Source: Patellaria atrata CBS 101060 (taxonomy: Eukaryota). Taken from it: DNA of 51,339 nt. The notes beneath the pieces were generated by a model. It saw only the letters and a program-made list of their open reading frames with translations, was not told the origin of the DNA and did no database searches. Shown here one piece after another: positions 21,501 to 49,743 of this stretch. The DNA lies in assembly GCA_010093705.1 (NCBI GenBank), contig MU006105.1, forward strand, positions 62,001-113,339, read 5' to 3'. The position numbers and the translations under genes were made by a program. How positions within the stretch are numbered: the stretch's first letter is position 1; each line of letters opens with the position of its first letter.

Positions 21501-24500
21501 ATATATTATAGTTTAGTTCTACTATTATAAACTTTCGTGAATAGAAGACTATTAAGTATAGTTATTCTTTTTAATTTAGTTAACTAATATATACTTTTAA
21601 TATATAATTTAATATATTAGTTTCGAGTATAATCTCTTTCTCTAGGTTAAATATAATTAAGATTAATATTATAATAAACTTTTTTTTAAGTTTATTAAAT
21701 ACTTTTTAAGTCTTTTCTATTTAAATAAAGGTATTATCCTTCTTTATTAGCTCTAATAATAGCGATATTACCTTAAAATACCCTTATATAAACTTCTTAT
21801 AATAGTTCGCGAAATTTAGAAATAATTATATATTCTTTATACTTTTTAATATAGATTATTCTACTATTATTTTTATCTTTTTTAAGTCTATTTATACTCC
21901 TTCTATAATAATAATAAAGTCTAGAAATTCTATTTTCTTAATATAAAATTTATATTTATTTAAGTATATTAAGAGCTTTTTCTTTTATAACTTCTTTAGA
22001 ACTTTTTTAATATACTCCCTATATTCTTTTAATATATTATTAGTATATATTAATATATTATCTAGATATACTATTATAAATACGTCTAAGTACTTTTTTA
22101 ATATATAATTAATCACTATTTAGAATATTATTAGAGCGTTAATTAAGTTAAAAAGTATTACTATATATTTATATAGTTTAAACTTTATTTTTATAATTAT
22201 CTTTCACTCTTTATCTTCTTTTATATAGATTTAGTAATATTCTTCTCGAATATCGAATTTTATAAACTATTTTACTTCTTATAATTTATTCTAGATTTTT
22301 AAGATTAAGGGTAATAAGTATTTATTTTTTATTATAATATTATTAAACTATTTATAATTAATATATAATTTTAATCTACTATTCTTTTTTAATATAAATA
22401 GAATTAGTGAAACTATTAACCTTTTACTAGATTATATATATCTCTTTTCTAAGTTAATATAGATATATTCTTTAAATACTATATATTATTCTTATAATAA
22501 TAGATAAATAAAATTAAATCGTAACTTTATATTCTTCTTTAATATTATTTTATAATCTCACGTTTAATAATTTAGAAATATAGTCGTTATATCTTTCTTA
22601 AATAAATCTTTAAACTTATTATACTTTTTAAATATTTTAGATTTTTTAAAAATCTTCTTAGCGTCTATTTTCTTAAACTATACTACTTTTATACTTTTAG
22701 ATTTATTTCTATAAATCTTTATTATTTTATAATATAAAATATATTTTATAAATATATTAATATTTATTTATTTAATATATTTTATTCACTTAACTTTATT
22801 TTTTTATAAGATATTTTAATTAATTTAGATATTTCTTATCTTCTAATTAATATTTAAATTTATTATTTATAATTAGTCTATTTTTAAAATTATATCTATA
22901 TCTTCTAAATTAATTATAGAGATATATTAAATAATTATTTTCTCTTATATATTAACTTCTACTAATATAGTTCTAAAATTAATTAGACCTTATTTATATT
23001 CTATTCCTTTATTATTTTCTAGTTATAATAGGACTAACTTTTTAAGTTTTATATAAAGTATACTTTTTTTTTTTACTTATTAAGATAAAATAAATAAATT
23101 AGTGGCGTTACTATTAACTAATATTATTATTCTTTTACTATATATAGTAATATCTACTTAAAGCGTTTTATCGTTACTTTATAAAGTTTTAAGAAATTTA
23201 AAAGTTATACTTCTTAATTATTTTTATCTTAAATAGCTTAGTAATTTTTTATATAGCTATATATTAAATAACTAGATTTTATATATATAGTTTAATATAA
23301 CTTATTATATTAATTATAATATAGACTTTTATAATACTCTTTATACTTTAATTCTCGACACTTTCACTTAATAATTATATTATAATTTAAGTTACTTTTA
23401 ATTTCTACTTTTTATCTCTACGCGGTATAATAATTATACTATATTCCTTTAACCGCGTATTATCTAAAGTCTATTATATTATATTTAATAATATATTTCA
23501 GTATTTTCTTATTATTTTAAAATACTTTTATCTTTTATAAAAATACTTTTCTTTTATAGAACTTTTCTTCTAAATCTTTATAATATTAATAGTCTATACT
23601 ATATTTATAATCTTTCTATATAGCTACTATATATCCCGTATAAATTAATATTTAATAATATTATTTATATTTAAGTTTATTTATATAATTAAAACTATTA
23701 TATTTTTTATAATTATCTATTAGTGGTTTAAATTCTTAGTTTTTTTTAAGTATTTTTATTTCGTTTTTATAGATTTTATACTCTTTTACTTAATACTCGC
23801 TTTTCGATAAATATATATATATAAAGTCTTAATTTTTAAACTTTATTATAGTCTTCTATTATTTATAGTATAAATAGTTATTCTTTTTATATTATATTTA
23901 TTAAAAGGTTAGATAATCTTCTACTTTTAATATAAAATTTAATTATTATTCTTTAATAATAATATTAATATTAAATTTAGGTTTAATCGATTTTTAATCT
24001 TAAAATTCTCGTTTAAGCTAATATTATTATTTTATAATTTAGTATATAAGACTTAGTTTATTAAATATTTATACTTTAATTCTTTAATCTTAATTCTATA
24101 TTAAGTATTTTAATATTATATATATACTTATATTTCTATATATCTAATATTATTAGTTATCTAAATATTATTAAAGTATTTCCTTTTTTAGCTAATTTTC
24201 TACTATTAAAAATAATATTAATAATCTATTTATCTTTATTTAATAGAGTAATAATATTTCTTTAATCTCTTTTTCTTCTAGCGATAAGACTAGTAACGAT
24301 AATATTAAATATATAACTCTAAGTTATATATATTAGTTATATCGCGAGGATAATTATATCTTTTATAGATAATCTCTTTTAAAATATCTTATTTCTTTAT
24401 ATTATAAATATATTTTATTTATAAAGTATTCTTTTTTTTCTTAAATAAATTATTATTATTTCTTTAACTTCTTTTATTTTATCTATTATAATTAATTAAA

Positions 24501-25874
24501 GTTTATTAAATCTTTTTAATCTTATTTATTTATAATTTTTATTACTTTCTTTTTATATTTAATTATAATATTCTTTTATTCTCTTCTTTTTTATTTATAT
24601 TTATATAATCTATTATCTATTTTAACTACTAAGATTACTATATTCTATATAATTATTAATCTTTTATAATAAATTTACTCGTCCTTTATTTCCTCCTTTA
24701 AATCTTAATAAAAGATTATTATTAATAGTTTATTAAATTAATCTAATATTAATATTATCTATTAAAATATAATTATATATTTCGAAATTAATTTCTTTTA
24801 TTTAAGTCTTTAAAGCTTTCTTTTAACTATTTATTACTCGTTAACTTCTCTAAAAATATTTTTAAATATTTTTTTAAACTTTAGAAATAATATAAAAATT
24901 TTATTTATTTTATCTTCTTAATCTTCCTTATTATTTTTAAGATAATCTTATATAATAGATTTAAATTATTCTAAAGCGTCTCCTTTAAGATATATTAATA
25001 TATTAAATATATATTTATTATTATCTATTAGCTCTATTTTTTTATAATAAATTCTTATTTAAATTAAGAATTCTTTTAACTCGTTCTATTTACTATTATA
25101 TAATATAGATTCTTTAATTTTCGTAGTTCACTTTTATAGTAAGAGTAATTATATAATAAATTATTTAAATTAATTCTTAAATTCTTAAATTATTCTTTTA
25201 TTTTTAAATTTATTAATATATTTATATAACGCTTAAATATATTCTTTATCCGTCTTTATATTAATTATAGCTAATAATATTATATTTAGATCTATTATAC
25301 ACTTTCTTACTATATAATAATTATAATATTATAATAGGAGTTTATATTTATTAAAATAGAATTAAATAAATCTAGAAACACGCCTAACTTTTTATTTAAT
25401 ATAGTTAACTATAAAAGTAGGTTTAATAAAGTGATAAAATATATATAATAAAAGTATTTTAAGTTAACGATATAATTTATTAACTCTTTAACTTTAGATA
25501 ATACTTATAATAAGATAAGATATATTATATAAAAATAATATAATAAGTGAAATTAAGTTTAAAACTATAATATTTAAATTTATAAGTAAGATTAATAATA
25601 AAAATAATTATAAAGAATCTAAATATATAAAGAAAAAATTATTCTTAAATATTTTTATTCTTTATAATTAATTTAATTATTTATACTTTTAATTATTCTA
25701 GTTATTCTAATTATTTAGTTATTTAATTATTTTCTACGACTAAAATATCTAAATATCTAAATATTTAAATTATATAATTTATTATTATTTATTTTATTTA
25801 TAATTCTTTTAAATAATATTTCTTTCTTTCTTTTACTTATTATCTATATATTCCTATAATTTATAGTTATAATA
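18534..25874 (-). mobile_element. Full-length RIP-inactivated Ty3/Gypsy family B copy 1 (7.3 kb)
   Basis: 548-bp LTRs at 18534-19081 and 25327-25874, TSD ATTAT, and PPT complement TTATCCTCTCTTTTTTT after 19081. Colinear with 35230-42557. Confidence 0.92.
19197..19799 (+). pseudogene. RIP-degenerated antisense Zn2Cys6/coiled-coil ORF of family B copy 1 (200 codons)
   Basis: Same position and frame as 35854-36423. The six Cys positions are TAT/TGT with x2-x6-x8-x2-x6 spacing, and the middle region is 33 nt longer in frame. Confidence 0.75.
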
Positions 25875-34265: not shown

Positions 34266-35229
34266 ATAACTTTAATTAAGGCTATATTTAAAAGTTTAAA
34301 GCTTTAAAATATTCTTAATATAATATAAATTATAAAAGAGTATAATTATAATTATATAATATTATCGCGGCGTTTTTATAATATCACTATTTTTTATAAA
34401 ATAATAATTAAAAACTCTAAATTAATAATTAAGATATAATTTAAAATATTTATTAAATATATTAATTAATTAATTAATTATATTTTTCCTTTTATATTTA
34501 TAATTATACGAAATTTAGTCGATTATATTATTAAAAAAAGATTTAAAAATAACTAAATTATAAAATAATATAAATATTATAAAGATTAATTTAAATTTAG
34601 TTATTTTAGTTCTATTAATTTAATTTATTATAAAATCGATTAAAGATTATTTTATAAGCTTTATTTTAAACTTCTTAAATATAAGCTCGATAAGTTTAAT
34701 ATTTTATTAGAAAATATATATAATATAGATAAAAAGAGCTTCCTTATAAATATACTTAAAAAATTATATAAGATTTATAATAAAGCTACTTTTAAAAATA
34801 GAAAAGTTAAAGAAATTATATAAAATAAAAATTAAAAGTAAATTATAATTTTAGTTACTATTTATATAGATAAAATAATTATCTCTTCTAAAATTATCTA
34901 TCCCTTAATATTAAAAGCGATATAAAATATATAATTAAAAAATTATTAATTAAAAAAGTAAAAGTATTTTTTTACTACTTTACTAATAAAATAGACTAAT
35001 AATAAGTTTAAATTAAGGTAATTAAAGACTATTTTTAACTATTCTATTAAAATTAAAGTTAATTAAGTTTAAAGACTTTTTATTATTAATAGTTATAACT
35101 TTTATATTAATATATCTTTTTTAAAGTATTATATAAATAATAAGATTATATTAGTTAATTATTCTTTTTATTTTATATATAAATTATAACTCTTTAATAT
35201 CTTCTTATTTTCTCCTCTTATTATATATT
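34266..35229 (+). pseudogene. pogo/Fot1 DDE transposase, N-terminal part (RIP-inactivated)
   Basis: De-RIP reading gives MAPIEAAL...TLSRRFRG (HTH), YNMDEKGF (~34718) and RLLIIDGHGSH...PPHSTHRLQPLDV (~35072-35200). Confidence 0.88.
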
Positions 35230-35853
35230 TATTATAACGGGAGTTTATACTTATTAAGATAGAACTAGATAAGTCTAGAAACGCGCCTAGCTTCTCACTT
35301 AACGTGGTTAACTATAAAGGTAGGTTCGGTAAAGTGATAGGATACGTATAATAAAGGCACTTTAAGTTATCGATATAACTTGCTAACTCCTTAACTTCAG
35401 GTACTACTCACAATGAGATAAGACGTACTATATAGAAATAGTGTAATAAGTGAAGTTAAGTTTAAAACCGTAATATCCAAATCTATAGGTAAGATTGATA
35501 GTAAGAATAACTACGAAGAATCTAAATATATAAGGGAAAGACCGTCCTTAAATATTCCTATCCTCTATAGTCAATTTGGGGTGCTCACACCCTTTTAGAC
35601 GTGGTGGCCGTTCTAGACGTGGATCTCCTTCTACGTCCTTTACGTCCACTACGTCTATAACCTGGACGTCCTGGACGTGGTGGACGTGGATCCCCCTTTG
35701 CGTCCTTTGCGTCCATTGCGTCCACAGTTTCTAGTCACGTGACCCCTTGTTNNNNNNNNNNNNNNNNNNNNNNNNNNNNNNNNNNNNNNNNNNNNNNNNN
35801 NNNNNNNNNNNNNNNNNNNNNNNNNNNNNNNNNNNNNNNNNNNNNNNNNNNAG

Positions 35854-36423
35854 ATGCCTCGAACTGAATCTCGCGCAGTTCGTCGTCGGCGTCTCGCAGC
35901 CCAAATTGTGTCCTCCGGTCGACTAATGCCCACTCCCTATTCAACCTGTCGCCGTCAGTCTCGCACTTGCCGTCTCGATCTCTCTTCCGGCTTCTGTTCT
36001 AAGTGTGTGGCTCGTGGTTCAAAATGCGACCTTATGGTGACACAAAAGGACTAGGACAAGCTGAACGCTTCGCGATCTGAGCTTCGTCGTAAGCTCGCTG
36101 AGGCGCGAGTTTCCCGTGACAACGCACACGCCCGGATGTTGGAGGCTTTCGCTCGTGAGGAGCGATTAATGCAGCAGCTCCAACTTCTCGATCAGAAGGA
36201 GGGCGAAATGATTCGTCGTGAGCTTGGTTCCATCGAGGAACTTGAGGCTTTGGAGCGAGCAGCCGAAGGGCAGCAAGCTTCCTCGGTCGCTCCTTCTTCC
36301 TCCGCTGTCGTGTCTCCCTCTAGTTGGTCTAGTTTGGATTTCCCTGCCCTCGAGGGTCTAGAATTCCCTGGTTTTGGCGATGAAACTGTTCAAGTTTCTG
36401 ATCGCAGTTCGTCAAGTGCTTGA
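35854..36423 (+). pseudogene. Antisense ORF of the retrotransposon: 189-aa Zn(II)2Cys6 + coiled coil + acidic/Ser tail, one RIP-type stop
   Basis: ORF-track ORFs 35854-36054 and 36136-36423 share a frame and are separated only by TAG at 36052 (from TGG). With TAT>TGT at 35938 the motif reads C-ST-C-RRQSRT-C-RLDLSSGF-C-SK-C-VARGSK-C, fitting CX2CX6CX5-12CX2CX6-8C. Confidence 0.85.
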
Positions 36424-39400
36424 GTGGTTCCCACGTGTTATCTACGTGTTCGTAGCCTTTCCATTTTACTAAATACTTGTACTGACCATTTACTCGTTGC
36501 AGGTCCAAGATTCGTTCTACCTCGTAGATATCTTCTTCCTCGAGTTCTATAGGTCGTGTTTAGAGTTTAGCATTAGCAGGTGCTAGTTCTAGGAGTGATA
36601 TATGGAAAACTAGGTGTATCTTCATTCCTTATAGTAATTCTAACTTATAATTGACTTTTCCTTTAACCTGTTTAATTCTAAAGGGGCCGATTTTCTTATA
36701 GTCTAGTTTCTTGTTAGGTCGTTTTGTTTTAAGGTTTTTCTATAACAAGTAAACTTTATCCCCCTTTTTAAAGGTCGGTTCTAGCGACCTATACTGATTA
36801 CTGTACTTCGTAGCCCTTATCGTCTAGAAAGCTATATCTCGTGATAACTATACGTGTAATTCCTTAATTTACTCTACTTTTAACGTTACTTCTTATAAAA
36901 TGCTCTAAACTGTTCTCGGCTCACGATATGCTTCCGGTTCAAAACCATAGTTCGTATAGAAGGGTGAAACCTTCGTAGTATCGGATTTCGCGCTATTATA
37001 TGCGAATTATACTATTAGTAATAGCTCTACCCAGTTATTCTACTAGTAATTTATATAATTGCGTAAGTATTACTCTAGAGATTAATTCATTCTCTTAGTT
37101 TAGCTATCCGTTTATAGGTGAAAGCTCGTTAATAGCTTATAGTTTATCTCTAGACCCTATACTAGAGTTTACTAAAACGCTAATTTAAATAGTTTATCTC
37201 TATCTAAGATAATCTCTCTCGGTATCTAGTGATTTACTAGCACTATTTTTATCACTAATACTGCTACTTATAGTGCTATCATCGTTATCTTTACTAGTAT
37301 AAAGTAGGTGAACTTTATTAGTCGTTCTACGATAACTAATATCACGTTATACTCTACTCCTATTACTAGATCTTTAGATCCTAGTAGACCTATAATAAAG
37401 TCTATCGTTATTAAGTCCTATACTCGCTTTAGTGGCTTAATATATTATATCTATCTATAAGGTGCGTGTTTAGCACTCTTATTTCGTGCGTAGTCGTTAC
37501 ACTCTAAAATGACTTACTTTACTATACCTCTTACTCCTAGGAAATAGTAATTCCTTAGGATCCTTTCTAAGGTTTTATTAATACCTTAGTGACTATATAC
37601 TAGTGCTTTATAGATCTCTTTAGTAAGAGTCTTTCGTAGTGTTATTAATATATATACGAGCCTGTCGTATAGTTATATTCCTTAAGCTATTTATATTACC
37701 CTAGAGTCGTTACCCCTTCGGAACTCCTCTATTATACTATTCTTCTAATAGATATCACGAATTTATTATTCTCTCGTGGATTCGATTATTAGCATTATAG
37801 CTAATCTTAGCTAGTTATAGGTGATCGCGTTATTTTCTTTCTTTAGTACCGCGTTATATACCGGTTTCGTTCTTTCTAGGTAGTCGGATCTTCTACTTAT
37901 AGTATCGGCTAGTTTATTTTCGACTTCTAGTCTATAGAATATCTTAAAGTTAAAAGATACGAGTGTTTCTACCTATCTTACTTATCTTCGATTTAACTTC
38001 TTTATTATAAGGAAGTTTATTAGGTTTTAATAGTCTAACTAAACTTTTACAGTGAACTTAGGTCCTTTAAGGTATAACCTCCACTATTCGAATACGTCGA
38101 CAATCGCTAATAATTCCTTATCGTGTATATCGTAGTTTAGCTCTACGGCCGTGAACTTTCGCGAATAAAAGGCTATTAGGTGTAGTCGTCCTTTCTTATC
38201 TAGCTAACTTATATATACACCTAGTATATAGTTAGATACGTTAGTTTCTAGTACTATCAATTTCTCTAGGTCGAACATAACTAGGATAGGTGCTATAGTG
38301 AACTTTTTCTTAAGTTCGTCGAATACTTCCTATACCTTCTCTATCTAAGTAAAGGTATTTTCCTTCTTTATTAATTCTGATAGCGGCGTTATCACCTTCG
38401 AGTACCCTTAGATGAACTTTCTATAGTAGTTCGCGAAGCCTAAGAACGATTATACGTCTTTTACACTTTTTAAAGTAGGCTAGTCTTTAACCGCGGCTAT
38501 TTTCTTCAGGTCTACTCGTATACCTTTAGTGGTAACGATAAAGCCTAGGAATTCCGTTTCTTTAATATAGAATTCACATTTTTCTAGGTGTACTAGGAGT
38601 CTCTTTTCTCTTAATTTCCTTAATACTTTCTTTACGTGCTCCCTATACTCTTCGAGTGTTCCGTTCGTATACACTAGTATATTATCTAGGTAAGTAGTTA
38701 TAAATACGTCTAAATACTCTTTTAGTGTATAATTGATTACTACTTAGAATGTTACTAGGGCGTTAATTAAGCCGAATAGTATTACTATATATTCGTATAG
38801 TCCGAACCTCGTTCTTATAGCTATCTTCCATTCTTCGCCTTCTTTCATTCTAATTCGATAGTAACCGTCTCGGATATCGAATTTCGTAAACCATTTTACT
38901 CCTTATAACCTATCCTAGATTTCTAAGATTAAGGGTAATAGGTATCTATTCTTGACCGTGGCATCGTTTAGCTATCTATAGTCGATATATAATCTTAGCT
39001 TACTATTCTTCTTTAGTATAAATAGAATCGGTGAAGCTATCGGGCTTTCACTAGGTCGTATATATCCCTTTTCTAAGTTAGTGCGGATATATTCTTCGAG
39101 TGCTTTATATTATTCTCTTATTAACGGGTAAATCGGACCGGGTCGTAGTTTCGCACCCTCCTTTAGCACTATTTCATGATCCCACGTCTAGTGATCCGGA
39201 AGTATAGTCGCTATATCTTCCTTAAACAAATCTTTGAACTCGCTATACTCTTCGGGTATCTTAGGTTCTTTAGAAACCTTCTTAGCGTCTATTTTCCTAA
39301 GCTATACTACTCCTACGCTCTTAGGTTTATTTCTATAGATCTTTATTATCTTATAGTGCGAAATACGTCCTACGGATATACTAGCGTCCGTCTACTTAAT

Positions 39401-39874
39401 ACGTCCTATTCGCTTAACTCTATCCTTTCGTGAGGTGTCTTAGTCAATCTAGATACTTCTCGTCTTCCAGTCAATATCTAGGTTCACTGTTTACAATTAG
39501 TCTATCCCTAGAATCATATCTACATCTCCTAGGTCGGTTATAGGGATGCGCTAAGTAGTTACCTTCCCTTATACGTTAACTTCTACCGGTATAGTCCTAA
39601 AGTTGATTAGACCTCGTCTATATCCTATTCCTTCGCCATTTCCTAGTCGCAACGGGACTGGATTTTCAAGTTTCGTGTAAGGTATACTCTTCTTTTCTAC
39701 CCATCGGGGTGAGATGAACGAATCGATGGCGCCGCTATCAACTAGCGCTGTCGTTCTTTTGCCGTGTATGGTAACATCTACCCAAAGCGTCCTATCGTTG
39801 CTTCGTAGGGTTTTGAGGAACTTAGGAGCCATACTTCTCGATCGTTCCTGTCTCGAGTGGCTTAGTAGTTTTTT
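36329..39874 (-). pseudogene. pol: pol polyprotein (PR-RT-RH-IN-chromodomain) with many RIP stops
   Basis: ALVDSGA protease motif, YLD(N<D)ILVY at ~38670-38693, and chromodomain [25 protein letters not shown] at ~36420-36530. The segments checked are in one frame. Confidence 0.92.
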
Positions 39875-41901
39875 GCGTAGCCATGTACTGGGCAACCGGA
39901 TTCCACGCACACGGTCCAGTGTAGTCTATCGTGTCGGTCGTAGTATGGACCTTTACGATATTCCTCGCATTCCAATTCTCGACATTCTCGTTTAATAACT
40001 GCGTTATGACTTGGGTTACTTTTGATTCCTGCTCTCCATCTTTGCGCGGTATAGTAATCGCACCATATCCCTCTAATAGCGCATTGCCCAAAGTCTGTCG
40101 CGTCATATCTAGTGGCTTGCTCGATAGTTTCCCTTTCGTCTCTAAGCGCTTCTATTTCCTATAGGAACACTTTTCCTTTATAGAACTCTTCTTCTAATCC
40201 TCTATAGTACTAGCAATCTATGCTATATTCGCAATCTACCCACGTTACTACTACACATTCTACGTGGATTAGCGCCTAGTAATGTCGTCTACACCTAAGT
40301 TTATCTATACAATTGAAACTGTCGTACTTCCCATAGTCGCCTACTGGTGGTTCGAGTCCTCGATTCTTTTTAAGTGTTTTCGTTTCACCTTCGTGTGTTT
40401 TGCACCCTTTTACCTGGCACTCGCTTTCAGGTAAATGTATATATATAGGGTCTCGGTCCCTGAACTTTGCTATAGCCCTCTACTATTTATAGTATAAACA
40501 GTCACCCTCTTTACATTGTATCCATCGAAAGGCTAAACAGTCTTCTACCCTTGGTGCAAGGTTCAGTTGTTGTTCTTCGCTCGCATCGGTATTGGGTTCG
40601 GGTTCGATCGGTTCCCAATCTTGAAATTCTTGTTCGAGCCGTTGTTGTTGTTCCATAATCCGGTACGTGAGGCCTAGTCCGTCAGATGTTTGTACTCTGA
40701 TTCTCTAACCTTGATTCTGTGCTGGGCATTCTAATGCTGTGTGTGTACATATGTTTCCACACGCCCAACATTGTTGGTTGTCTAAACGTTGTCGGAGTGT
40801 CTCCTCCTCCAGCCAGTTTCCTGCTGTTGGGAACGGCGTTGGTGGCCTGCTCACCCCCGTCTAGTATGGTAGCGGCATTTCCTCAATCTCTTCTTCTTCA
40901 AGCGATGAGACTGGTGATGGTGGTGTCAGGTGCATGACTCTGAGTTGCATACGTCGGTTGTGTCGCGAGGATGGTTGCGTCTTCTATGGGCAGTCTCTCT
41001 TGAAATGTCCCACTTCTCCGCATTGTAGATATGCTCTATTCGTAAAGCGCTCTTTTTCTTCTTAGGTGAACTGTCGTTGTTTCTTTGGCTTCTTTTGTTT
41101 TGTTTGTTGTAGTCGGTCGAGGTCCATCGGGTCCCCCTGATCTTGTCTATTCGTGGCCCTTGTTACCTTCTTTCTGTATCTAACCACAACATTCTTCCGT
41201 CCTCCCTTTTCCTATCTACGCTCGTATAACCTGTTATCTATTCTAACTGCTAAGGTCACTGCGTCCTGCATTGTTGTTGGTCTCTCATAATGAACCCACT
41301 CGTCCTTCACTTCCTCCTTCAAACCTTGATAGAAAGCGATCATCAGTGGTTCATCAGGCTAACCCAATGTTGATGCTGCCTGCTAGAATGTAGTCGCATA
41401 CTTCGAAGCTGACCCTTTCTGCCTGAGTCCTTGAAGCTTTCTTTCTGCTGCCTGTTGTTCGTCGACTTCCCCAAAGACGTTCTTGAGCGTCTCTTCGAAC
41501 CTTGGAAACGACTTGAAGATCTCCACTGTTTCGTCTTCCTGGTGTTCTTCACTGTTCTCAAGATAGTCTCGTGCAATGGGTTCGAACCATTCCAAAGCGT
41601 CTCCTTTAAGGTACGCTGATGCATCGAGTACACGTTCACTATCGTCCGTTAGCCCTATTCTTTTATGATAGATCCTCACCTGGGTCAAGAATCCTCTCAG
41701 CTCGTCTCGTTTACCATCGTATGGTGCGGGTTCTTTGACTTTCGCGGTTCGCTTTTGTGGTGAGAGCAACTGTACGGTAAGTTGTTCGAGCTGGTCCCTA
41801 AGTTCTTGAACTGTCCCTTCGTTTTCGAGTTCGCTGATGCGTTTGTACAACGCTTGGATATGTTCTTTATCCGTCTTCGTGTTGGCTGCGGCTGACGACA
41901 T
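39862..41901 (-). pseudogene. gag: gag, 679 codons, with a few in-frame RIP-type TAG stops
   Basis: Retrotrans-gag motifs (YDGKRDELRGFL, YLKGDALEWF, LRQKGSASKY, FYQGLKEEVKD, GDPMDLD) and CCHC knuckle (C)LQCGEVGHFKRDC. The frame is continuous to TAA at 39862-39864. Confidence 0.9.
39868..39874 (-). promoter_or_regulatory. Candidate -1 ribosomal frameshift heptamer A AAA AAC at the gag/pol junction
   Basis: gag ends GCA AAA AAC TAC TAA. The protease frame is -1 relative to gag, and the heptamer fits X XXY YYZ. Confidence 0.75.
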
Positions 41902-42314
41902 CGTGTCTAGGTCTGTTATACGCTTTCCTACTGCGTGGTAGTTATAATGTTATAACGGGAGTCTATACTTATCAAGACAGAACTGGATAAGTCTAGAAAC
42001 GCGCCTGGCTTCTCACTCAACGTGGTCAACCATAAAGGTAGGTTCGGCAAAGTGATAGGATACGTATAACAAAGGCACTTCAAGTTGTCGATACAACTTG
42101 CTGACTCCTTGACTTCAGGTACTGCTCACAATGAGACAAGACGTACTGTATAGAAACAGTGTAACAAGTGAAGTCAAGTTCAAAACCGTAACATCCAAAT
42201 CTATAGGTAAGATTGATGGTAAGAATAACTACGAAGAATCTAAATACATGAGGGAAAGACCGTCCTTAAATATTCCTATCCTCCATAGTCAATTTGGGGT
42301 GCCCACACCCTTTT

Positions 42315-42461
42315 GGACGTGATGGCCGTTCTGGACGTGGATCTCCTTCTACGTCCTTTACGTCCACTGCGTCCATAACCTGGACGTCCTGGACGTGGTG
42401 GACGTGGATCCCCCTTTGCGTCCTTTGCGTCCATTGCGTCCACAGTTTCTAGTCACGTGAC
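42315..42461. promoter_or_regulatory. LTR U3 motif array: 2 x 67-bp unit of 3 GGACG plus 3 inverted CGTCC (9-bp spacing), then palindrome GTCACGTGAC
   Basis: GGACG at 42315, 42324 (GGCCG), 42333, 42382, 42391, 42400. CGTCC at 42352, 42361, 42370, 42419, 42428, 42437. E-box palindrome at 42452-42461. The same array is in the other LTR at ~35597-35743. Confidence 0.75.
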
Positions 42462-42557
42462 CCCTTGTTACTGGTTTCATCCGTGGTTCTCCCGAGTGGT
42501 GTTCCTACTTTCCCCTCACTCGTTGTCTGCATGTTTCTACAACTTGTGGCCGTAACA

Positions 42558-43485
42558 ATATTATAATTAAAATCTTAATAACTTTTTAAGTTAATTATAA
42601 AGTATATCGAATATTATAAAATAGAACTTTTTTAAGCTATTCTAGCCTATTTACTAGAAGGCTTTTATAGAGAAAAATATCCTTAAAAGCTTTAAAAAAA
42701 TAGATATCTCTCTATATAATTCGAGTGAAATACTATAAGAATTAGTAAAGCCGAAGAGGTAACTAGTTAGTTAAATAGGCGGTAGATTAAGCTTAAGTGA
42801 ATTAGCTAAATTAGTGTTATTAGAGAAAGATTGGAAACGTATAGAGAAGAAACTAGAGACCGTTATTTCTAATGTAATACACCCTATCGTCGAAGAGCTA
42901 AAGGCGAAGTTTCAATTCCTCTCTACCTCTAATACTATCCTCCAACAACAGAACTTCGGTTTGATTAAGGCTCTTGAGGGCGAGAAGAAGCGACGTAAAC
43001 GGCAGAAGCCTCTTTTACAACGAGTAATTAGCACAGAGGATGGTGGCGCGGTGTTTTGGAGCCCTCAAAAAATTACCCAAGCGCGCGATTTCCTACGGCA
43101 AAAGGAGGAAGATGAAGCTGCAGAAAAAGCTCGTAAAGTAAATAATAAGCTTCAGCAACAGCTACGTAAAGAGGAGAAAGAAGAACAAGCTAAAGAGCGC
43201 AAGCTTCAACGACAAAAAGATAAGGAGGAGAGGGAGAGGGTAGCTGAGGCAAAAAACGCTCAGCAACAAATTACTGTAGAAGCCAAACAAGCTAAACAAA
43301 AAGCTCAAAAAACACGTAGACCCCCTCAAAAACCGAAGCAGAAGAAGCAGATTGTTATACCACCAGCCATAGAACTCTTAGATAATATTACTGAGGTAGT
43401 AGAGGTAGAAACGGTCAATCCCACGACTGGTCGGCCCCGACGGCAATCACGACTGCCACAGAGATTTCAGAGCCCTGATATATAG
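42558..43485 (+). pseudogene. pogo/Fot1 transposase, C-terminal part (open 42814-43485)
   Basis: Continues the frame broken at 35229 (de-RIP KRNFFKLFWPAYQKAFTEKNILKGFEKTGI). It contains GAVFWSP and a K/E/Q-rich coiled coil typical of fungal pogo transposase tails. Confidence 0.88.
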
Positions 43486-45154
43486 ATAGACGGAAAGTAC
43501 AGCTTCTTATTCACAACATCATGAAATTTAGTATAGATATATCAAATATGGAGCGAGTTGCATCATTTTCAAAATCACTCTATGGGGTGCGATTTTTGGG
43601 GGGCGACTGTGCACGGTCTGAAACCGTGCACGACCTGAACAAGACCCTTACCCGGTGACGAGCTTCACCATATAACAATATGCACGTAAGATTATCAAAG
43701 AGGGGAACCACAACCTATCCCCAGTGGTAGAAGACATGTTCTAGGTATCTCGAAGGACGAATCTCACGACCCGGCAGTTGAAGACTCCCAAAGGTTAGGG
43801 CCATTTTGCGAAACTTCTTTTATTATGGTTGTACATCCTCAGCGTCGTAATTGGGCTTATAATACCTGGAAGCAAGTGGAATGCTCCCAATTGTCTCCCA
43901 TCAACCATCAACTTGAGTCCGTTGACTGGACTAAAGATCCTGGTAATAACGAGGAGGACTTCTCCCAACAATATAGATCGTCTCCTTGGCCTTTTTTTTT
44001 CCCCAGGGTTAGCTAACGAATAAGGCTATAGCAGCACGGGAGTTGGTAATTACAAGGTTCAATCTCGCTAAACACTTATATTCCCCTTTCAAATCTCATA
44101 TTTTCAGATACACATGTCTCATGAACTTTGGAAGTTATATTAGTGGTTCTCCCTATTCGGAGTTTTCAATAACTGTCCTACTTACCATAAAGGGTAAGAG
44201 ACGGGAAAATTTGAGGGTAGTATGAGCACTACACCGAGGAAATAGATTTAGGATCAAGCCATATTCTTCTACGTCTTGCAGCTACCATATGACGGTGTCC
44301 AACGAATCGAATGGGCCTACATCTACCTTGCATAATTTCAAAATATGGAGGTTCAGTGACTGTAGAACAAAGAACGGAAGAACTTCAAGAAGTGAGTAAG
44401 TGGAAGACCTCCCCGGGTTGGCTTGCATGATCGGCATAGCTAAGTGTTCCCAGTACTTACAAAAGGAGGCATCTGTCTCTCATGATTCTTGATCTGTAAA
44501 CAAGGTATTCCCAGTCGAAACCTTAGTTCATTCTGACCGGTTGGAGATGAATTCGGCTCGGCCCATCCGAAACCGCGTGCAGCAGTACAGTGGAAAGCAG
44601 AGCGCCGGATGCGTCAGTTAAATGCATCGAAAACTGCATAGATACGTGTTAGGACATGTGATCACTAGGTTATCGGATATATGTCTCCCAAAGATGTATT
44701 AATAATCTAAACCTGACCCCATTGCGATGGTCTTGCGGTAACAGCGGATAGGACGAAGTTAGACAAGGGACAATCACAGGATAGATAAGAGTACCATCCC
44801 TTTTTCATATTTTACTCAGCATCGCCTGATTGGTACGGGGCATGCAAATATATGGTGCAGTATGGTAAATATATGCGGATCTTCGTTAAGCTGTAAAACG
44901 ACTGAAGGGATTTCCCTTGATACTCAGGGTTATACCCTTTCTTAACCTTTTCGAGGACTAAGTGTACAAGGCCTATACTCCTCGCCCGAGGTCTCCTTAA
45001 AGTAATCTCATATCTAGAGTGGATTATTATATAAGTTGAATGAACTCGTCGTTTTCTGCTTCAGTTGAGTGCTTTTCTCCTGATAATTTCTCCGCCTATT
45101 ATAATACTATATCTTTGAACCAAATTGTTAAGCTCTCTGACGGGCATATCATCC

Positions 45155-46927
45155 ATGACAATAGTGATGGATATATCTAGTGATATTTCTTTCATTCAGT
45201 CGCTCTCTTTTAAAGTTATTTTTACTGTAGTCGTTGCTACCTATAGTGTTTATCTGATTGGTCTTGGAATATATCGCGTCTATTTCGATTCTTTGTCCCA
45301 TTTTCCTGGCCCTAAACTCGCCGCATTCACCACATGGTATCAAGCGTATTACGATATATACTATGTTGGACAGTGGTTTAGGAAACTGGATAAACTTCAC
45401 GATCAGTATGGACCTATTATTCGTATTAATCCGCATGAGCTGCACATTTCGGATCCCAACTTTATTGATATTCTTTTTACGGGCTCAACGCAGAAACGAG
45501 ACAAGTATAAATGGTTCGGGCGATCAATTCTCTTACCAGACTCTGTTGGTGCAACTATACCTCATGATCTTCATCGGAAGCGGCGAGCGGCAATTAATCC
45601 CTTTTTCTCGAAGGGCAGAGTAGGCCACCTAGAACCTACAATCCAAGGTATCATAAGCACTCTTCTCCAACGGATGAGTGAGTATGGTGCTAATGAAGGT
45701 GTGATGCGTATGAGCCTGGCCTATAGAGCAACAACATGTGATGTGATCACTGGTTACTCATTTGGAAAGTCTACGAACTATCTAAAGCAACAGGATTTCA
45801 ATATAGCATTTTTCAGCGCTGTTGATGCTATGTTTGCATTAGCATGGCCATTAACATATATATGGTGGCTAGGCCCACTGCTAAATAGCACTCCTCCCTT
45901 AATAATGGGATATGTGAACCCTGGTTTTAAGTCCCTCCGGGGGATGCAGGTAGTAAGTGGATGACCGTCCAGGAAAAAAAGCAGTGTAACTGACAACTTC
46001 AGGAATGGATAAAACAGATTGAGGATATCAGAACATCACCGGATCTAAAATCGAACAATTCAACTATTTTTCATGGTGTGCTTAATAGTAAGTTACCACC
46101 GGAGGAGAAGTCGCCAAGTCGTCTATATCAGGATGCACAGCAGCTCGTTTTCGCGGGACAAGATACAACAGGTATGCAATACATGATCAGTTCATTTAAT
46201 TTACCCTTTCTCATTCTTATAGCATACACCTTATCTGCCATCACATTCGAGCTTCTAGCATACCCAGACAAGCTTGTGAAGCTGAAAGCGGAGCTTGCGG
46301 CCGCCTTTCCAAATCCAGATAATATTTCAGCTGCCGTATGCGAGAATCTTCCATATCTTACTGCTGTTATTCAAGAAGGTATCCGTCTCCACCCTGGCGG
46401 CCTTGTGCGTATGACCCGCGTTGCACCTCATCAAACCATGATATATTCCAACAAGAAGGAAAACCGTGAATGGACTATTAAGCCAGGAACTCCTGTTAGC
46501 ATGACCGCATGGACTGTCCAAATGAATCCTGATATCTTCCCTGCTCCTAAGAAATTTGAACCAGAACGTTGGATTGATAATCCCCACCTAGACAAGTACC
46601 TGATTGCGTTTTCTAAAGGTACTAGAATCTGTGTAGGGTAAGTTTAAGTTAACTATCTATTTTGATGTCTGGTTTTATACCTACTAAAGTTCCTCTAGTT
46701 TCCATCTCGCCTACTTGGAGCTGTACCTCGTCCTAGCGGGAGTTTTTCGCCGCTATGATATGTATGATGGAACGGGTAAGCAGAGTAACCCGACGCTGGA
46801 GCTATATGACACTATTAGAGAACGTGATATCGATCCTGTGGTGGATCATATTATACCGTATCCCGCAGCTGGAAGTCAAGGGTTGAGACTTGTGATAAGA
46901 CATGGATCCCAGGGCGTGGAACACTAG
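45155..46927 (+). CDS. Cytochrome P450, ~536 aa, 4 exons (45155-45952, 46003-46171, 46223-46637, 46699-46927); resembles CYP58/trichodiene-oxygenase-like clan
   Basis: N-terminal TM helix, FPGPKLAA, YGPIIRINPHELH, I-helix AGQDTT, K-helix EGIR, PERW and heme motif FSKGTRICVG. Three GT-AG introns (50, 51, 61 nt) restore one frame. Family assignment is from motif recall only. Confidence 0.93.
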
Positions 46928-47871: not shown

Positions 47872-48350
47872 TGTTACGGCCACAGGACAACGGGAACGCA
47901 TCACCAGTGGGGTGGTAGTACCAAGTGTCGGAGCGGAACAACCAGCACGGAAGTCACGTGATGTGATCCCAGGTGATCCCATTGATCTCAGTTTTGAGAA
48001 GTGGGATCAGACGGGAGCAGTGGGAGCAACGAGGCCACGTGATGTGATCCCAGGTGATCCCATTGATCCCAGTTTCGAGAAGTGGGATCAGACGGGAGTA
48101 GTGGGAGCAACACCCAGTTATAGCTAGGAAGAAGGAATACTTAAGGACGCTCCTTTACGCATGTATTTAGATTCTTCGTAGTTATTCTTACCATTGATCT
48201 TACCCATAAGATTGGATGTTACGGTTTTAGACTTAACTCTTACTTGTCACTCTATTTCTATACAGTGTTATCTTGCCTCTCTTGTAAGCTGTGTGATTGA
48301 GTTAAGGAGTCAGTAAGTTGCATCGTTAACTTAAAGTACAAGCCTTATAC
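47872..48350 (+). mobile_element. Truncated LTR of a family-B-related element, not obviously RIP-mutated
   Basis: Starts TGTTACGGCCACA like the family B LTR. 48135-48350 aligns to the reverse complement of 42065-42277 (CATGTATTTAGATTCTTCGTAGTTATTCTTACCAT...). It is cut at the LINE poly(T). Confidence 0.88.
47955..48111 (+). repeat. 2 x 76-bp direct repeat (81-bp period) in the U3 of the LTR
   Basis: Units at 47955-48030 and 48036-48111 differ by three C/T changes. Confidence 0.92.
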
Positions 48351-48356
48351 TGTTTC

Positions 48357-49550
48357 TTTTTTTTTTTTTTTTTAATTCCGTTGTATTGTATTACCTACAA
48401 TACTGCGCATGCAGCCTTTAAGCTATGGCGCAACTCCCTATATACATAAATCCCTTTTCAGGGCCCTCATATGCTTAGTAAAGTCTTTAGTGGCTTAACC
48501 ACTGATATTTTATTTGTAAAGGAAAGTCAAGAAGTTTAAACTCTATACAAAGGAAATTGTTGAAAAACCATCTATTCTTCCTCTTTACCATCTGTTTTTT
48601 ATTCCCAGTTTTATGCCATGCATCCTGTTGTCTTCTGTAGACTCTATACTTCCACTCTATCTGCATCTCCTGCGTGCATCAGCCATCTAGCAGTAGAGAT
48701 TTGAGTTCTTGCTATATATTTAAATACCACCTGTTTGCCTAACTTTGTGCAAAAAAGCTTTGTCATTGTTAGCTTTGATCTCAGTTGTTTCCTCATTTCC
48801 TTACGCTCTTTTGAGTAGTTTGCACAATGTAAGATAAGGTGTGTTGGTGTTTGAAGTGATTGACAGTCTCTGAAGCACTTCCCGTCTTCATCTTTCCCAA
48901 TCACCTTAGAGTAAGACTTAAAGAATCCAATACCAGTCTTGAGTTGAAAATAGGCTGCTTGGATCTTTTTCTGGACATTAGATTTGGGTATACTGAGTGA
49001 GAAACGCACATGATCTCTGCAAATGCGTGTATAATGTTTGCCTTGTCTCTTGCTATTGGCCTCCCAGCTTTGTTTCCAATTAGATAAGATCTTTTCCTTG
49101 CATTTTCGTTTAATATAACTGAGTGATGTGAATGAAGTGCTTATAGGATTGTGGTCCAGTCCTTTCTTAGCCAGTTTATCTGCTATATCATTCCCAAAGA
49201 TGTTCTTATGGCCAGGAACCCAGCTAAAGGTAATTTTCATTTCCCATTCATTAGTGAGAGTATTGCATAGGTCAGTTATCAGCACACTTAGTTCTTGTCC
49301 TCCATCAAGGCTGTTCTTTTGTAGCCTCTTAAGTGCCGCTTGGCTGTCCACAAAAACCCACAGGTTTTTGGCAATGGATTGTCCTTTCTCACATTGGGTC
49401 TTTTCTCTTTCAAGTGCTTTAACGATCGCAAATAGCTCTGCATCCATAATCTCAATGCTATCTCCTAAGTTCCAGTTGCTGGCAAACAAAATGCGCTGAT
49501 TGTTTCCTATCTGGCATGCCCCTGCAGCATTTCTGTTGCCTTCTTTACTG
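48357..49550 (-). mobile_element. 5'-truncated non-LTR retrotransposon (Tad-like LINE): RNase H, CCHC, 3' UTR and poly(A)
   Basis: T17 at 48357-48373 is the poly(A) tail; a ~270-nt 3' UTR and the ORF2 C-terminus follow. Confidence 0.88.
48644..49549 (-). pseudogene. LINE ORF2 C-terminal fragment (RNase H plus zinc knuckle)
   Basis: DAELFAI, FVDSQAAL, WVPGHKNIFGNDIADKLAK and C-x3-C-x7-H-x4-C (CFRDCQSLQTPTHLILHC). Breaks just inside the first catalytic DGS motif. Confidence 0.88.
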
Positions 49551-49743
49551 TGACTTTCGAAACATCGTGAACTCTTGGCTACACCACATCATCGCACACA
49601 ACACCCCGCCAGAATCATCGCATTTTTATGTTTCTTGATGTAGCTTTACAACCAAATAACTGTTGAAGCTGAATATTATATCTATTTAAAGCCCTGAATA
49701 AACGTTATCTCGTGAACCATTCAGATTCTCTGTTGTTACAGAA

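Follow-up and report, generated by a model that had tools for sequence, protein, structure and literature searches.

A Patellaria atrata chromovirus with an antisense gene whose small zinc-cluster, coiled-coil product is a possible regulator of the element

Results

The host element and its second copy

The window, i.e., the whole 51,339-nucleotide stretch of Patellaria atrata CBS 101060 DNA that was analysed, carries on its minus strand a complete Ty3/gypsy chromovirus (copy A, 35230-42557) with LTRs of 610 bp and a target duplication ATATT. On the strand opposite gag, protease, RT, RNase H and chromodomain, an additional open reading frame (ORF) occupies the interval from pol to the 3' LTR. 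The parts of the element are as follows.

35225-35229, no strand: target-site duplication ATATT, low side; the five bases recur identically at 42558-42562, flush outside the other LTR
35230-35751, minus strand: 3' LTR, of which 522 of about 610 bp can be seen, with a higher RIP load than the 5' LTR
35752-35851, no strand: assembly gap of 100 N, ending two bases short of the ATG of the ORF
35854-36423, plus strand: accessory ORF of 189 codons, antisense to gag-pol, inactivated by TAG at 36052-36054 and TAT at 35938-35940
36329-36559, minus strand: C-terminal end of pol, chromodomain and stop (Pfam Chromo, 66 bits, E 2.8e-18)
38207-38329, minus strand: RNase H piece of pol (Pfam RT_RNaseH_2, E 7.9e-07)
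38483-38902, minus strand: reverse transcriptase pieces of pol (Pfam RVT_1, E 8e-11 and 9.8e-05)
39572-39925, minus strand: aspartic protease (Pfam gag-asp_proteas / Asp_protease_2, E about 2e-07)
41386-41949, minus strand: gag (Pfam Retrotrans_gag, E 1.3e-07; Ty3_capsid, E 5.3e-05)
41948-42557, minus strand: 5' LTR, 610 bp, beginning with TG and ending with CA on the plus strand
42558-42562, no strand: target-site duplication ATATT, high side

The feature set of a chromovirus (LTRs, target-site duplication, gag, protease, RT, RNase H and a C-terminal chromodomain, here at 36559-36332 on the minus strand and followed by the pol stop codon at 36329-36331) is present with the exception of the integrase. 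RIP-fragmented pieces at 36889-37972 gave no Pfam match, but one of them (37271-37417) matches the corresponding part of a related metagenome locus, L002. The two LTRs are 93.7% identical over 520 bp (the 35230-35751 region vs. 41950-42469), and of the 34 positions at which they differ, 33 show C>T or G>A toward the 3' LTR, 31 of these 33 in CpA/TpG context; RIP in copy A is demonstrable. Judged from the 5' LTR and from the second copy of the element, the 100-N gap conceals the terminal 88 bp or so of the LTR together with the polypurine tract and some 115 bp of sequence upstream of the ORF, which places the inner boundary of the 3' LTR at about 35839, partly within the gap. The gap was not mentioned in the preliminary description of this DNA.

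The second copy (copy B) was recovered from the same window by the following matches.

18534-18881 and 25327-25674: LTR pieces of copy B (blastn of the element vs. the window)
19296-19784, plus strand: relic of the same antisense ORF (tblastn with the P. atrata paralog P0004, 31.6% identity over 158 aa, E 5e-13)
19829-23076: pol of copy B (blastn of the element vs. the window)

Copy B is heavily degraded by RIP and repeats the ORF and LTR layout of copy A. It is free of gaps across the stretch hidden in copy A, where it displays the LTR end, a pyrimidine tract, about 115 bp and the equivalent of the ATG. Both window copies of the element are dead. Transversions between the copies, counted by codon position (22/15/25), are not significant and give no signal of selection in an alignment that the RIP-wrecked copy makes unreliable.

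Layout of the antisense ORF

The ORF begins with ATG at 35854, ends with TGA at 36421-36423 and is interrupted by a single internal stop, the TAG at 36052-36054. Its last 95 bases, from 36329 onward, run antisense across the end of pol. The antisense position between the pol chromodomain and the 3' LTR, as proposed in the preliminary description, is borne out by the Pfam Chromo match, the LTR pair and the target-site duplication. Four segments can be distinguished in the product.

35854-35925, plus strand: basic, NLS-like N-terminal extension MPRTESRAVRRRRLAAQIVSSGRL, with the pattern MP(K/R)...RRxRLA, which is conserved among most of the 30 aligned relatives with an N-terminus
35938-36027, plus strand: six-Cys cluster C-x2-C-x6-C-x8-C-x2-C-x6-C, the first Cys being Tyr in the window copy
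36043-36285, plus strand: long helix or coiled coil with the conserved motif RRELxSIEELExLE, an AlphaFold2 helix in the P. atrata paralog P0002
36286-36420, plus strand: Ser/Ala-rich linker and acidic-hydrophobic tail (pLDDT about 60), overlapping pol from 36329

The window copy retains five cysteines of the cluster (C32, C39, C48, C51 and C58), codon 29 being the TAT at 35938-35940. The acidic-hydrophobic tail is encoded by the part of the ORF that overlaps pol, an arrangement absent from the earlier account. The NCBI gene model for the locus (P0003) follows the ORF frame from Met25 and omits 15 codons around the TAG; its 45-nt intron, which bypasses a stop made by RIP, is invented.

Other readings of the region were considered. 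One in which pol itself reads on through the ORF region was rejected, the minus frame after the pol stop being open for 95 codons without a match in the related metagenome locus L001. In L001 the minus frame is likewise open across the whole ORF and does not match the minus frame of the window, and the plus frame of the window scores 61.6 and 58.5 bits against L001, vs. 47.4 and 39.3 bits for the mirror minus frame. On both counts the minus frames are taken to be shadow frames. A chance ORF, and a host gene lying beside a truncated element, were both rejected on the target-site duplication, the second window copy and the two outside loci.

Repair of the two lesions from relatives

The preliminary description had joined the ORF by reading TAG as a former TGG and had completed the cluster by reading TAT as a former Cys codon, and relatives agree with both repairs. 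Trp occupies the position of the stop in all five relatives that cover the codon, and Cys is found in seven of the eight relatives that cover the column of codon 29, the exception being the gene model of the locus itself. All six cysteines are carried by P0002 and six other relatives, so that the first Cys is not lacking from the family. The further claim that both changes bear the TpG>TpA signature of RIP stands in part: the copy is damaged by RIP, but the TAG taken by itself could equally derive, through RIP, from CAG. An origin from TGG is preferred because the paralogs carry Trp, and it is the paralogs alone that decide this. Elsewhere in the family, Tyr in the Cys columns (14 cells) corresponds to the RIP-type change TGY>TAY.

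A widespread family of small proteins

The read-through protein matched seven P. atrata proteins at 56-94% identity (best E 1.4e-91, at 94% identity), an agreement that, by sequence comparison, is far in excess of chance. A profile search retrieved 905 representative clusters at E<=1e-3, 267 of them at E<=1e-10. Intact relatives encode products of about 165-200 aa. Named members belong to the Dothideomycetes (Patellaria, Zopfia and Paraphaeosphaeria) and to the Lichinomycetes (Watsoniomyces); neighbours in the protein atlas are unnamed clusters from Ascomycota, annotated as 'hypothetical protein' and without a Pfam family, and a scan of viral contigs yielded no relatives. Cysteine occupies each of the six Cys columns in 156-163 of 169 family proteins, the remainder being only Tyr or gaps, and a regular expression for the six-Cys spacing fits 144 of 170. 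The variants listed for the part of the ORF outside the pol overlap, three synonymous and three non-synonymous, are few and selected.

Genomic contexts of the gene

Four genomic contexts were read, i.e., copies A and B and the metagenome loci L001 and L002, and in all four the ORF lies inside or beside an LTR element (present in two of two window copies and two of two related loci, a small sample). In L002, LTRs at 9312-9725 and 15586-15999 (86.7% identity) enclose integrase, RT and gag pieces on the minus strand, and the ORF adjoins the lower LTR on the plus strand. The order in L001 is gag on the minus strand, one LTR of the form TG..CA, a pyrimidine tract, 105 bp and, on the plus strand, the ORF. 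Here an in-frame TAA precedes the equivalent ATG by 12 nt, and the ORF is frameshifted. Its single LTR may reflect assembly collapse or a tandem or circular form. Homologues had been expected to lie antisense next to an LTR; L002 and copy B show the same position, and L001 is compatible with it.

Copy A and L001 share 44% identity in the ORF and 25-47% in gag pieces, and copy A and L002 share 29% in the ORF, 29% in gag and 36-46% in RT. On these alignments, conservation of the ORF between elements is about equal to that of gag-pol. The ORF is the relic of a real, conserved, multi-copy, element-borne gene.

Zinc cluster, fold and dimer

The cysteine spacing that defines the Zn(II)2Cys6 class (C-x2-C-x6-C-x5-12-C-x2-C-x6-8-C) is found in the relatives, and five of its six cysteines in the window copy. 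Pfam Zn_clus scores of the window copy (13.4 bits, E 0.083) fall below the gathering cut-off of 21 bits. The nine closest relatives scored 22.0, 21.9, 20.9, 20.3, 18.0 and 14.4 bits, three having no match; among 55 relatives, four gave E<=1e-3 and two reached the cut-off. Membership in the Zn2Cys6 family is borderline.

AlphaFold2 modelled P0002 with a pLDDT of 84.5, placing two short helices in the cluster and a long helix at residues 40-120 (pLDDT 93-99). The model upholds the order proposed earlier, i.e., a basic run, a six-Cys cluster, a long helix and an acidic-hydrophobic tail. Foldseek matches to this model were weak, and all 27 at E<=10 are Zn2Cys6 proteins (including Put3, Leu3, Gal4, Hap1, Pho7, AlcR, Ppr1, Lac9 and Cep3/CBF3), with a local rmsd of 1.2-2.4 A over 30-35 columns for entries that comprise only the cluster. 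A search of PDB sequences with the family profile returned generic coiled coils only.

For a homodimer, ESMFold2 gave a score of 0.59 vs. 0.02 for the best control, with a partner pLDDT of at least 72 and at least 70% of contacts shared between runs; the mark applied here was reached by 21 of 30 proteins solved as homodimers and by none of 23 solved single-chain proteins. Among eukaryotic proteins without an older solved relative only one of seven reached it, so that a pass may reflect memorisation by the model. The modelled dimer is antiparallel, with contacts such as residue 46 with 92 and 57 with 81. In Gal4 the coil is short and parallel; the antiparallel dimer differs in this respect, and its two clusters would therefore be far apart. 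The dimerisation helix expected of the Gal4-type class is thus present in the models, in an orientation unlike that of Gal4. We consider it somewhat probable that the protein is a DNA-binding zinc-cluster dimer. From its domain order, it would be expected to be nuclear, zinc-dependent and sequence-specific.

Repeat arrays in the LTRs

Both LTRs of copy A contain a dense repeat array, best preserved in the 5' LTR.

42315-42441, no strand: repeat array in U3 of the 5' LTR, made up of 13 RCGTCC hexamers that occur in either orientation and are spaced by 9 bp

The 13 hexamers fall within 127 bp of U3, and nine persist in the 3' LTR at 35633-35723. Across the window, RCGTCC occurs 30 times vs. 4.3 expected, a count reached in none of 100 shuffles. 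The LTR of L001 holds seven exact GCGATCAC octamers in 131 bp, at a distance from the LTR end similar to that of the RCGTCC array (eight matches in L001 with at most one mismatch, vs. 2.0 expected). The two arrays are possible targets of the ORF protein, and they could equally be enhancers bound by host factors. Sites of Zn2Cys6 proteins typically contain a CGG triplet, from which the cores of both arrays differ.

Discussion

That the element carries a real protein gene is very probable. Taken as a whole, the best explanation for the locus, which we hold to be plausible if finely balanced, is an accessory gene of an Ascomycota Ty3/gypsy chromovirus lineage that may have acted as an autoregulator and was killed by RIP. 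The gene starts about 115 bp inside the polypurine tract, and its 3' end reaches 95 bases into pol. The encoded protein comprises a basic, NLS-like N-terminus, a cluster of six cysteines in Gal4 spacing, a helix of about 80 residues that probably pairs into a homodimer, and a disordered acidic-hydrophobic tail. The most speculative step is the mechanism that we prefer, in which an antisense promoter within or adjoining the 3' LTR would drive transcription of the gene. The protein would then act in trans on the dense, lineage-specific repeat array with CG core in U3 of its own LTRs and so set transcription of the element, closing an autoregulatory circuit with a logic comparable to that of HBZ of HTLV-1. 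An LTR-side transcript and a role in regulation are both proposals, and action of the protein on its own LTR is a tentative one. A similarly tentative, wider version is an entire Ascomycota chromovirus lineage with its own transcription factor, expressed antisense from the 3' LTR, binding the U3 array and co-evolving with it in each element.

The gene might instead restrain the element that bears it, its product (as an LTR repressor) or its antisense RNA (as dsRNA formed with the 3' end of pol RNA) providing copy-number control or a trigger for silencing. We regard this as unlikely, while noting that the final 95 bases of pol are covered by the ORF on the opposite strand, that the modelled antiparallel dimer is unlike a classical Gal4-type activator, and that passages of a plant review on antisense extra ORFs raise regulation based on dsRNA (PMC7264820). 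The acidic-hydrophobic tail, however, resembles activation regions in composition, which would fit an activator better, and invariant Cys columns together with the 905 clusters speak against restraint through RNA only. Such strong constraint at the protein level implies that the protein matters, and not the RNA alone.

An autoregulatory gene must further be distinguished from a passive passenger, i.e., part of a host gene for a Zn2Cys6 transcription factor, picked up in a single transduction event and without function for the element. LTR elements are known to capture genes, as parts of the same review describe (PMC7264820), and Zn_clus is the top Pfam match in several paralogs. However, the ORF has been kept across elements whose gag proteins are only 25-29% identical, and the conserved start, the six invariant Cys columns and the conserved coil motif extend over 169 proteins. 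The best 150 of the 905 profile matches measure 79-388 aa, and none has the 600-1000 aa of a host factor; the suspicion that the homologues are ordinary host genes is not sustained among these matches. Given the retention across diverged elements, any capture would have to be ancient and long retained, which amounts to function, and we consider passive carriage improbable.

We give equally little credence to the view that the proteins are mainly a host gene family, perhaps domesticated, of which the element copies are a minority met by chance. Most relatives are indeed represented only by proteins from short metagenome contigs that offer no context, and scaffolds of 0.4-2.3 Mb carry some of the P. 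atrata paralogs. Such short contigs, about 1 kb long, are, however, the usual outcome when repeats are assembled, and all four readable contexts lie inside or beside LTR elements. The multiple copies also fit a repeat, with seven paralogs in one genome and, in one Watsoniomyces metagenome-assembled genome, three members of a single 90% identity cluster, each on a different contig. There is likewise little to recommend reading the six-Cys domain as another zinc or disulfide module with a structural role (for instance as a particle component, or in import into the nucleus or anchoring of the pre-integration complex), as its spacing is exactly Gal4-type, all Foldseek matches are Zn2Cys6 proteins, and basic residues surround the first two cysteines, as they flank the first Cys pair in DNA-contacting clusters.

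The layout with an antisense extra gene already has precedent in brtn of Boty and in antisense extra ORFs of plants. The preliminary statement that fungal chromoviruses encode only gag and pol is overstated, since Boty-like chromoviruses of Botrytis and Sclerotinia are reported, in passages of PMC7264820 and PMC8365987, to have the antisense gene brtn at the corresponding position. Papers citing the original study (Zhao et al. 2011, Virology 417:248; cited in PMC7264820, PMC8365987, PMC4227169 and PMC5987419) relate that a Monilinia transcript matches truncated Pol and BRTN, which would fit an overlap with the end of pol like that of the window ORF. Shared with Boty, as described there, are the fungal Ty3/gypsy background, the chromodomain and, in the interval from pol to the 3' LTR, an additional gene in antisense orientation; unlike the window family, with its six cysteines and long coil, brtn is given no domain or function in the citing passages, and the comparison is one of position and description rather than of sequence. 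No protein named BRTN was found among the homology-search matches or the 20 cluster representatives examined, and the supplements of PMC8365987 yielded no mention of brtn, GAL4, 'additional ORF' or zinc.

In plants, the corresponding aORF-3R genes include gene23 of maize Grande and those of rice RIRE2, Silene Retand and Phaseolus PvRetro13, according to passages of PMC7264820. As described there, they have the position and orientation of the window ORF, are found in the majority of copies within a family and show about the same conservation as other proteins of the element; some of their products localise to the nucleus, and a function in regulation is suspected (PMC7264820). They differ in belonging mostly to non-chromovirus lineages with long internal regions, and their products have, in the same account, no clear similarity to known proteins (PMC7264820), whereas the window product is predicted to resemble a known DNA-binding fold; the two groups are likened by layout rather than by sequence.

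With Gal4-type factors (PF00172; solved structures include Gal4 1d66/3coq, Put3 1zme, Leu3 2er8, Hap1 1hwt and Pho7 6e33) the window family shares the six-Cys spacing, a predicted two-helix cluster, a chain-pairing helix after the cluster and an acidic C-terminus. Unlike them, its members measure 165-200 aa, are without the fungal-specific middle homology region, are encoded by mobile elements, mostly score below the Pfam cut-off and have a coil of about 80 residues that is antiparallel in the model. Among retroviruses, HBZ is an antisense bZIP factor of HTLV-1 that is transcribed from the 3' LTR. It is likewise a dimeric, transcription-factor-like protein encoded antisense at the 3' end of a retroelement, by the 3' LTR, but it is of the bZIP class and from a vertebrate retrovirus, so that the analogy is one of layout and implies no homology. 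The HTLV 3' LTR contains an antisense promoter, as noted in passages of PMC7264820. No description of a Zn2Cys6-type gene in a fungal LTR element was found in the limited literature collection that was searched.

LTR retrotransposons are usually seen as gag-pol machines that rely on transcription factors of the host. If the elements described here encode a conserved DNA-binding protein, some fungal elements would regulate themselves, with consequences for the onset and end of transposition bursts and for the coexistence of elements with RIP and heterochromatin. For annotation, the finding means that hundreds of small proteins from genomes and metagenomes of fungi labelled 'Zn(2)-C6 domain' or 'hypothetical' are probably transposon genes and not host regulators. 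Should the protein be a regulator, the long-known antisense extra ORFs of plant and Botrytis elements would gain their first member with a recognisable and testable biochemical activity. The small zinc-cluster, coiled-coil protein may be the element's own regulator; if so, each element family would possess a private on-switch or copy-number brake that is independent of host factors, a retrotransposon counterpart of the transactivators of complex retroviruses, and the 905 or more clusters would rank among the largest unrecognised fungal families of regulators encoded by mobile elements.

Host element and reading frame

The left part of the window (1–35000) is an extremely AT-rich isochore of RIP type (GC 2–19%), and the right part carries genes. 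The retrotransposon listed below is a Ty3/gypsy chromovirus, as indicated by its LTR pair (93.7% identity over 520 bp, 35232–35751 vs. 41950–42469), its target-site duplication and its Pfam domains, including a chromodomain.

Features of the chromovirus, its accessory open reading frame (ORF) and copy B, a further, dead copy of this element
35230–42557, minus strand, complete LTR retrotransposon
41948–42557, minus strand, 5′ LTR of 610 bp (plus-strand ends TG at the start, CA at the finish)
35225–35229 and 42558–42562, target-site duplication ATATT (identical five bases on both outer flanks)
41949–41386, minus strand, gag (Pfam)
39925–39572, minus strand, aspartic protease (Pfam)
38902–38483, minus strand, reverse transcriptase (Pfam)
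38329–38207, minus strand, RNase H (Pfam)
36559–36332, minus strand, C-terminal chromodomain (Pfam, 66 bits)
35854 (ATG) to 36421–36423 (TGA), plus strand, accessory ORF of 189 codons with a single internal stop, TAG at 36052–36054
35752–35851, assembly gap of 100 N, ending two bases before the accessory-ORF ATG
18534–18881 and 25327–25674, LTR pieces of copy B, and 19829–23076, its pol; heavily RIP-degraded

The reading frames of the chromovirus are interrupted by many stops. The RIP signature invoked in the preliminary description is present: of 34 differences between the LTRs, 33 are C>T or G>A with the changed base in the 3′ LTR, 31 of these in CpA/TpG context. The assembly gap was absent from that description; since the target-site duplications match, its two flanks belong to one element. 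The hidden stretch is spanned by copy B, which shows, in order, the LTR end, a pyrimidine tract (the minus-strand polypurine tract), ~115 bp and the ATG equivalent; its ORF relic still aligns with the protein of a paralog (31.6% over 158 aa, E 5e-13). Further gaps occur in the left part at 15223–15322 (100 N) and 17757–17886 (130 N).

Lying between the 3′ LTR and the pol stop (36329–36331), the accessory ORF shares its final 95 bases with the pol tail, in antisense. Its codon 29 is TAT (35938–35940); Cys at this position would give C-x2-C-x6-C-x8-C-x2-C-x6-C. The preliminary description had reported this 189-codon antisense frame and proposed two repairs, TAG to TGG and TAT to TGT, and natural paralog sequences bear out both repairs. 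With X placed at the stop, the translated frame matched nine proteins at E ≤ 0.01, seven of them from Patellaria atrata CBS 101060 and most named 'Zn(2)-C6 fungal-type domain-containing protein' in UniRef; the best relative, P0002, is 94% identical (E 1.4e-91). In the alignment, the stop column holds Trp in all five natural relatives covering the position, and the Tyr column holds Cys in seven of eight, the exception being P0003. This protein equals the window frame letter for letter from the internal Met25, minus exactly 15 codons around the stop (36037–36081); it is evidently what the public annotation predicts at this locus, where a spurious 'intron' removes the RIP-made stop. Through this annotation artefact, a pseudogene takes on an intact appearance. 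On sequence grounds, the accessory ORF is a real gene, and it is dead in the window. A sequencing run listed under another organism and another study contains a contig with one difference over 36054–36317 at a depth of ~4; adjacent pol pieces in the same run diverge 5–12% from the window.

Minus-strand coding was weighed as well, as the pol frame, beyond two TAGs, continues for 95 open codons, and L001, a metagenome locus encoding a relative, has a minus frame without a stop over the entire ORF. When all frames of the window and L001 were compared, the plus frame gave 61.6 and 58.5 bits (split by an L001 frameshift) vs. 47.4 and 39.3 bits for the mirror minus frame, and the pol continuation gave no match. 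The minus frames were therefore rejected as shadows, and pol ends at 36329.

Several other features flank the element. In the gene-bearing part, a partial LTR of this family (48124–48337, ~80% identity over 208–218 bp) lies in the opposite orientation and probably represents a truncated copy or a solo LTR. A 314-aa open frame at 48644–49588 on the minus strand (Pfam RNase_H, E 3e-09; RVT_3, E 3.5e-04) probably belongs to another retroelement, possibly of non-LTR type. On the plus strand are a cytochrome P450 gene of at least two exons ~2.5 kb from the 5′ LTR (45119–46641; Pfam p450, E 3.4e-07 and 1.1e-26), a 536-aa open frame without Pfam match (49702–51312) and, immediately outside the 5′ LTR, a 236-aa Lys/Glu-rich frame with no Pfam match reaching the cut-off (42775–43485).

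Protein family

When 1.84 billion representative proteins were searched with a profile built from eight relatives, 905 matched at E ≤ 1e-3, of which 267 reach E ≤ 1e-10 and nine E ≤ 1e-30; all of the best 150 of the 905 are 79–388 aa long. Named members come from Patellaria atrata, Zopfia rhizophila and Paraphaeosphaeria minitans (all Dothideomycetes) and from a Watsoniomyces obsoletus MAG (Lichinomycetes; three in one 90% identity cluster, on separate contigs). The remainder derive mostly from metagenomes, on contigs of ~1 kb, and Atlas neighbours are unnamed Ascomycota clusters of 62–122 members each. Thirty aligned members share an N-terminus that opens with MP(K/R) and runs into basic residues (RRxRLA). 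Next comes the cluster MPxPC-x2-C-x6-C-x8-C-x2-C-x6-CDL, with Trp or Phe a few positions past it, and then a long helical segment bearing the motif RLRKQL...RELxSIEELExLE; the C-terminal tail is variable, Ser/Ala-rich and acidic-hydrophobic.

Among 169 family proteins, a set picked by profile and hence not unbiased, each of the six Cys columns holds Cys in 156–163, and the sole other residue is Tyr (14 cells in total), i.e., TGY>TAY, the change made by RIP. This is the pattern of a putative functional metal-binding site with occasional RIP-killed copies. The Met directly before the cluster (M-P-x-P-C; Met25 in the window, 35926–35928) is kept in 140 of the 169, and the conserved start lies ~24 codons upstream of this column; Met25 might serve as a second start yielding a form without the basic N-terminus. 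Overall, our data show a conserved, multi-copy, element-borne protein gene.

Predicted structure

The AlphaFold2 model of P0002, built with 30 aligned relatives, has a mean pLDDT of 84.5, with two short helices in the cluster (6–10 and 25–30, pLDDT 81–90), one continuous helix at 40–120 (pLDDT 93–99) and a low-confidence tail. Foldseek against the PDB gave 27 matches at E ≤ 10 and none at E ≤ 0.001; the matches listed are all Zn2Cys6 proteins (Put3, Leu3, Gal4, Hap1, Pho7, AlcR, Ppr1, Lac9, and Cep3/CBF3), with local rmsd of 1.2–2.4 Å over 30–35 columns for cluster-only entries. A sequence profile against PDB chains retrieved generic coiled coils only. With Pfam Zn_clus (cut-off 21 bits), the window copy scores 13.4 bits and six of the nine closest relatives 14.4–22.0 bits; of 55 relatives, only 4 reach E ≤ 1e-3. 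Because these sub-cut-off scores and the coiled-coil profile weigh against a firm assignment, we call the domain Zn2Cys6-like, a borderline case in which the spacing fits, the predicted fold appears to fit and scores for curated sequence membership mostly fall short. Of the earlier interpretation, the element-borne, antisense, RIP-damaged gene and its domain order hold; the Gal4-family label is only borderline, and the regulatory role would be a putative one.

A homodimer model (ESMFold2, four Zn included) scored 0.59 vs. 0.02 for the best control, a mark reached by 21 of 30 solved one-chain pairs and 0 of 23 solved single chains, although eukaryotic proteins without an older solved relative pass in 1 of 7 cases and a pass may reflect memory. 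Contact agreement between runs was at least 70% and partner pLDDT at least 72. Modelled contacts (46 with 92, 57 with 81, 43 with 95) describe an antiparallel coil, whereas that of Gal4 is short and parallel; if true, this arrangement would hold the two clusters far apart.

Association with LTR elements

A metagenome scan with the pattern IEELE[AK]LE matched 595 stretches, two of which, L001 and L002, encode a relative. [quoted passage not shown]

~9990–10432, plus strand, ORF adjoining the lower LTR
11372–11292, minus strand, piece matching the window integrase region
12980–12367, minus strand, reverse transcriptase piece matching the window
15440–15090, minus strand, gag piece matching the window

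In L001 (2.5 kb), gag (1436–3, minus strand) is followed by one TG..CA LTR (~1444–1899), a pyrimidine tract, 105 bp and the plus-strand ORF ATG, with an in-frame TAA 12 nt upstream of the latter. This single LTR would result from a tandem pair, from a circle with one LTR or from two LTRs collapsed in assembly, and under each of these the ORF adjoins the 3′ LTR side. All four readable contexts (L001, L002 and the two window copies) agree on the link between the ORF and an LTR element. Identity to the window is 44% for the ORF and 25–47% for gag pieces in L001, and 29% (ORF), 29% (gag) and 36–46% (reverse transcriptase) in L002, so that the ORF is about as conserved between elements as gag and pol.

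The antisense layout is already known, and by analogy the accessory ORF belongs with the antisense accessory genes of Ty3/gypsy elements. One of them, brtn of a Botrytis element, was reportedly described by Zhao et al. in 2011; we compared it with the present family by description only. Where citing papers mention brtn, the passages give no domain (PMC8365987, PMC4227169, PMC5987419). According to a review, the plant elements Grande, RIRE2, Retand, and PvRetro13 carry extra ORFs in antisense, located between pol and the 3′ LTR; these are of unknown function and conserved like other element proteins, some products are nuclear, and none clearly resembles a known protein. [quoted passage not shown] In the literature searched, we came across no account of a fungal LTR element with a zinc-cluster gene. 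What stands out here is the recognisable, predicted DNA-binding-type fold and the very large family of related sequences.

LTR repeat arrays and proposed function

From the domain order, we infer that the product would be a nuclear, zinc-dependent DNA-binding dimer. The accessory-ORF ATG lies only ~105–115 bp inside the polypurine tract, which would place its promoter within this spacer or in the reverse reading of the 3′ LTR, in line with the preliminary description. Within 127 bp of U3 (42315–42441; 3′ LTR counterpart 35633–35723) there are 13 RCGTCC hexamers in both orientations, spaced 9 bp apart; the window holds 30 vs. 4.3 expected, and 0 of 100 shuffles reached 30. The array is ~45 bp upstream of TATTTAA on the element sense strand and ~230 bp upstream of the antisense ATG, and therefore lies between two divergent transcription units. 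The LTR of L001 has another motif at a similar distance from its end, seven exact GCGATCAC octamers within 131 bp (1704–1834; eight matches with at most one mismatch in L001 vs. 2.0 expected), and that of L002 has 9-bp repeats at the corresponding place (9559–9610). In each LTR, a dense short-motif array (CG core, 9–10 bp spacing) is found 65–250 bp from the PPT-proximal end, and the motif varies by lineage.

The U3 array of the element's own LTR is a candidate target of the accessory-ORF protein. The arrays could equally be enhancers for host factors, and their core differs from the CGG triplet usual in Zn2Cys6-class target sites, which counts against the array as the protein's target. The presence of lineage-specific arrays beside a lineage-specific putative DNA-binding protein suggests a possible private regulatory circuit.
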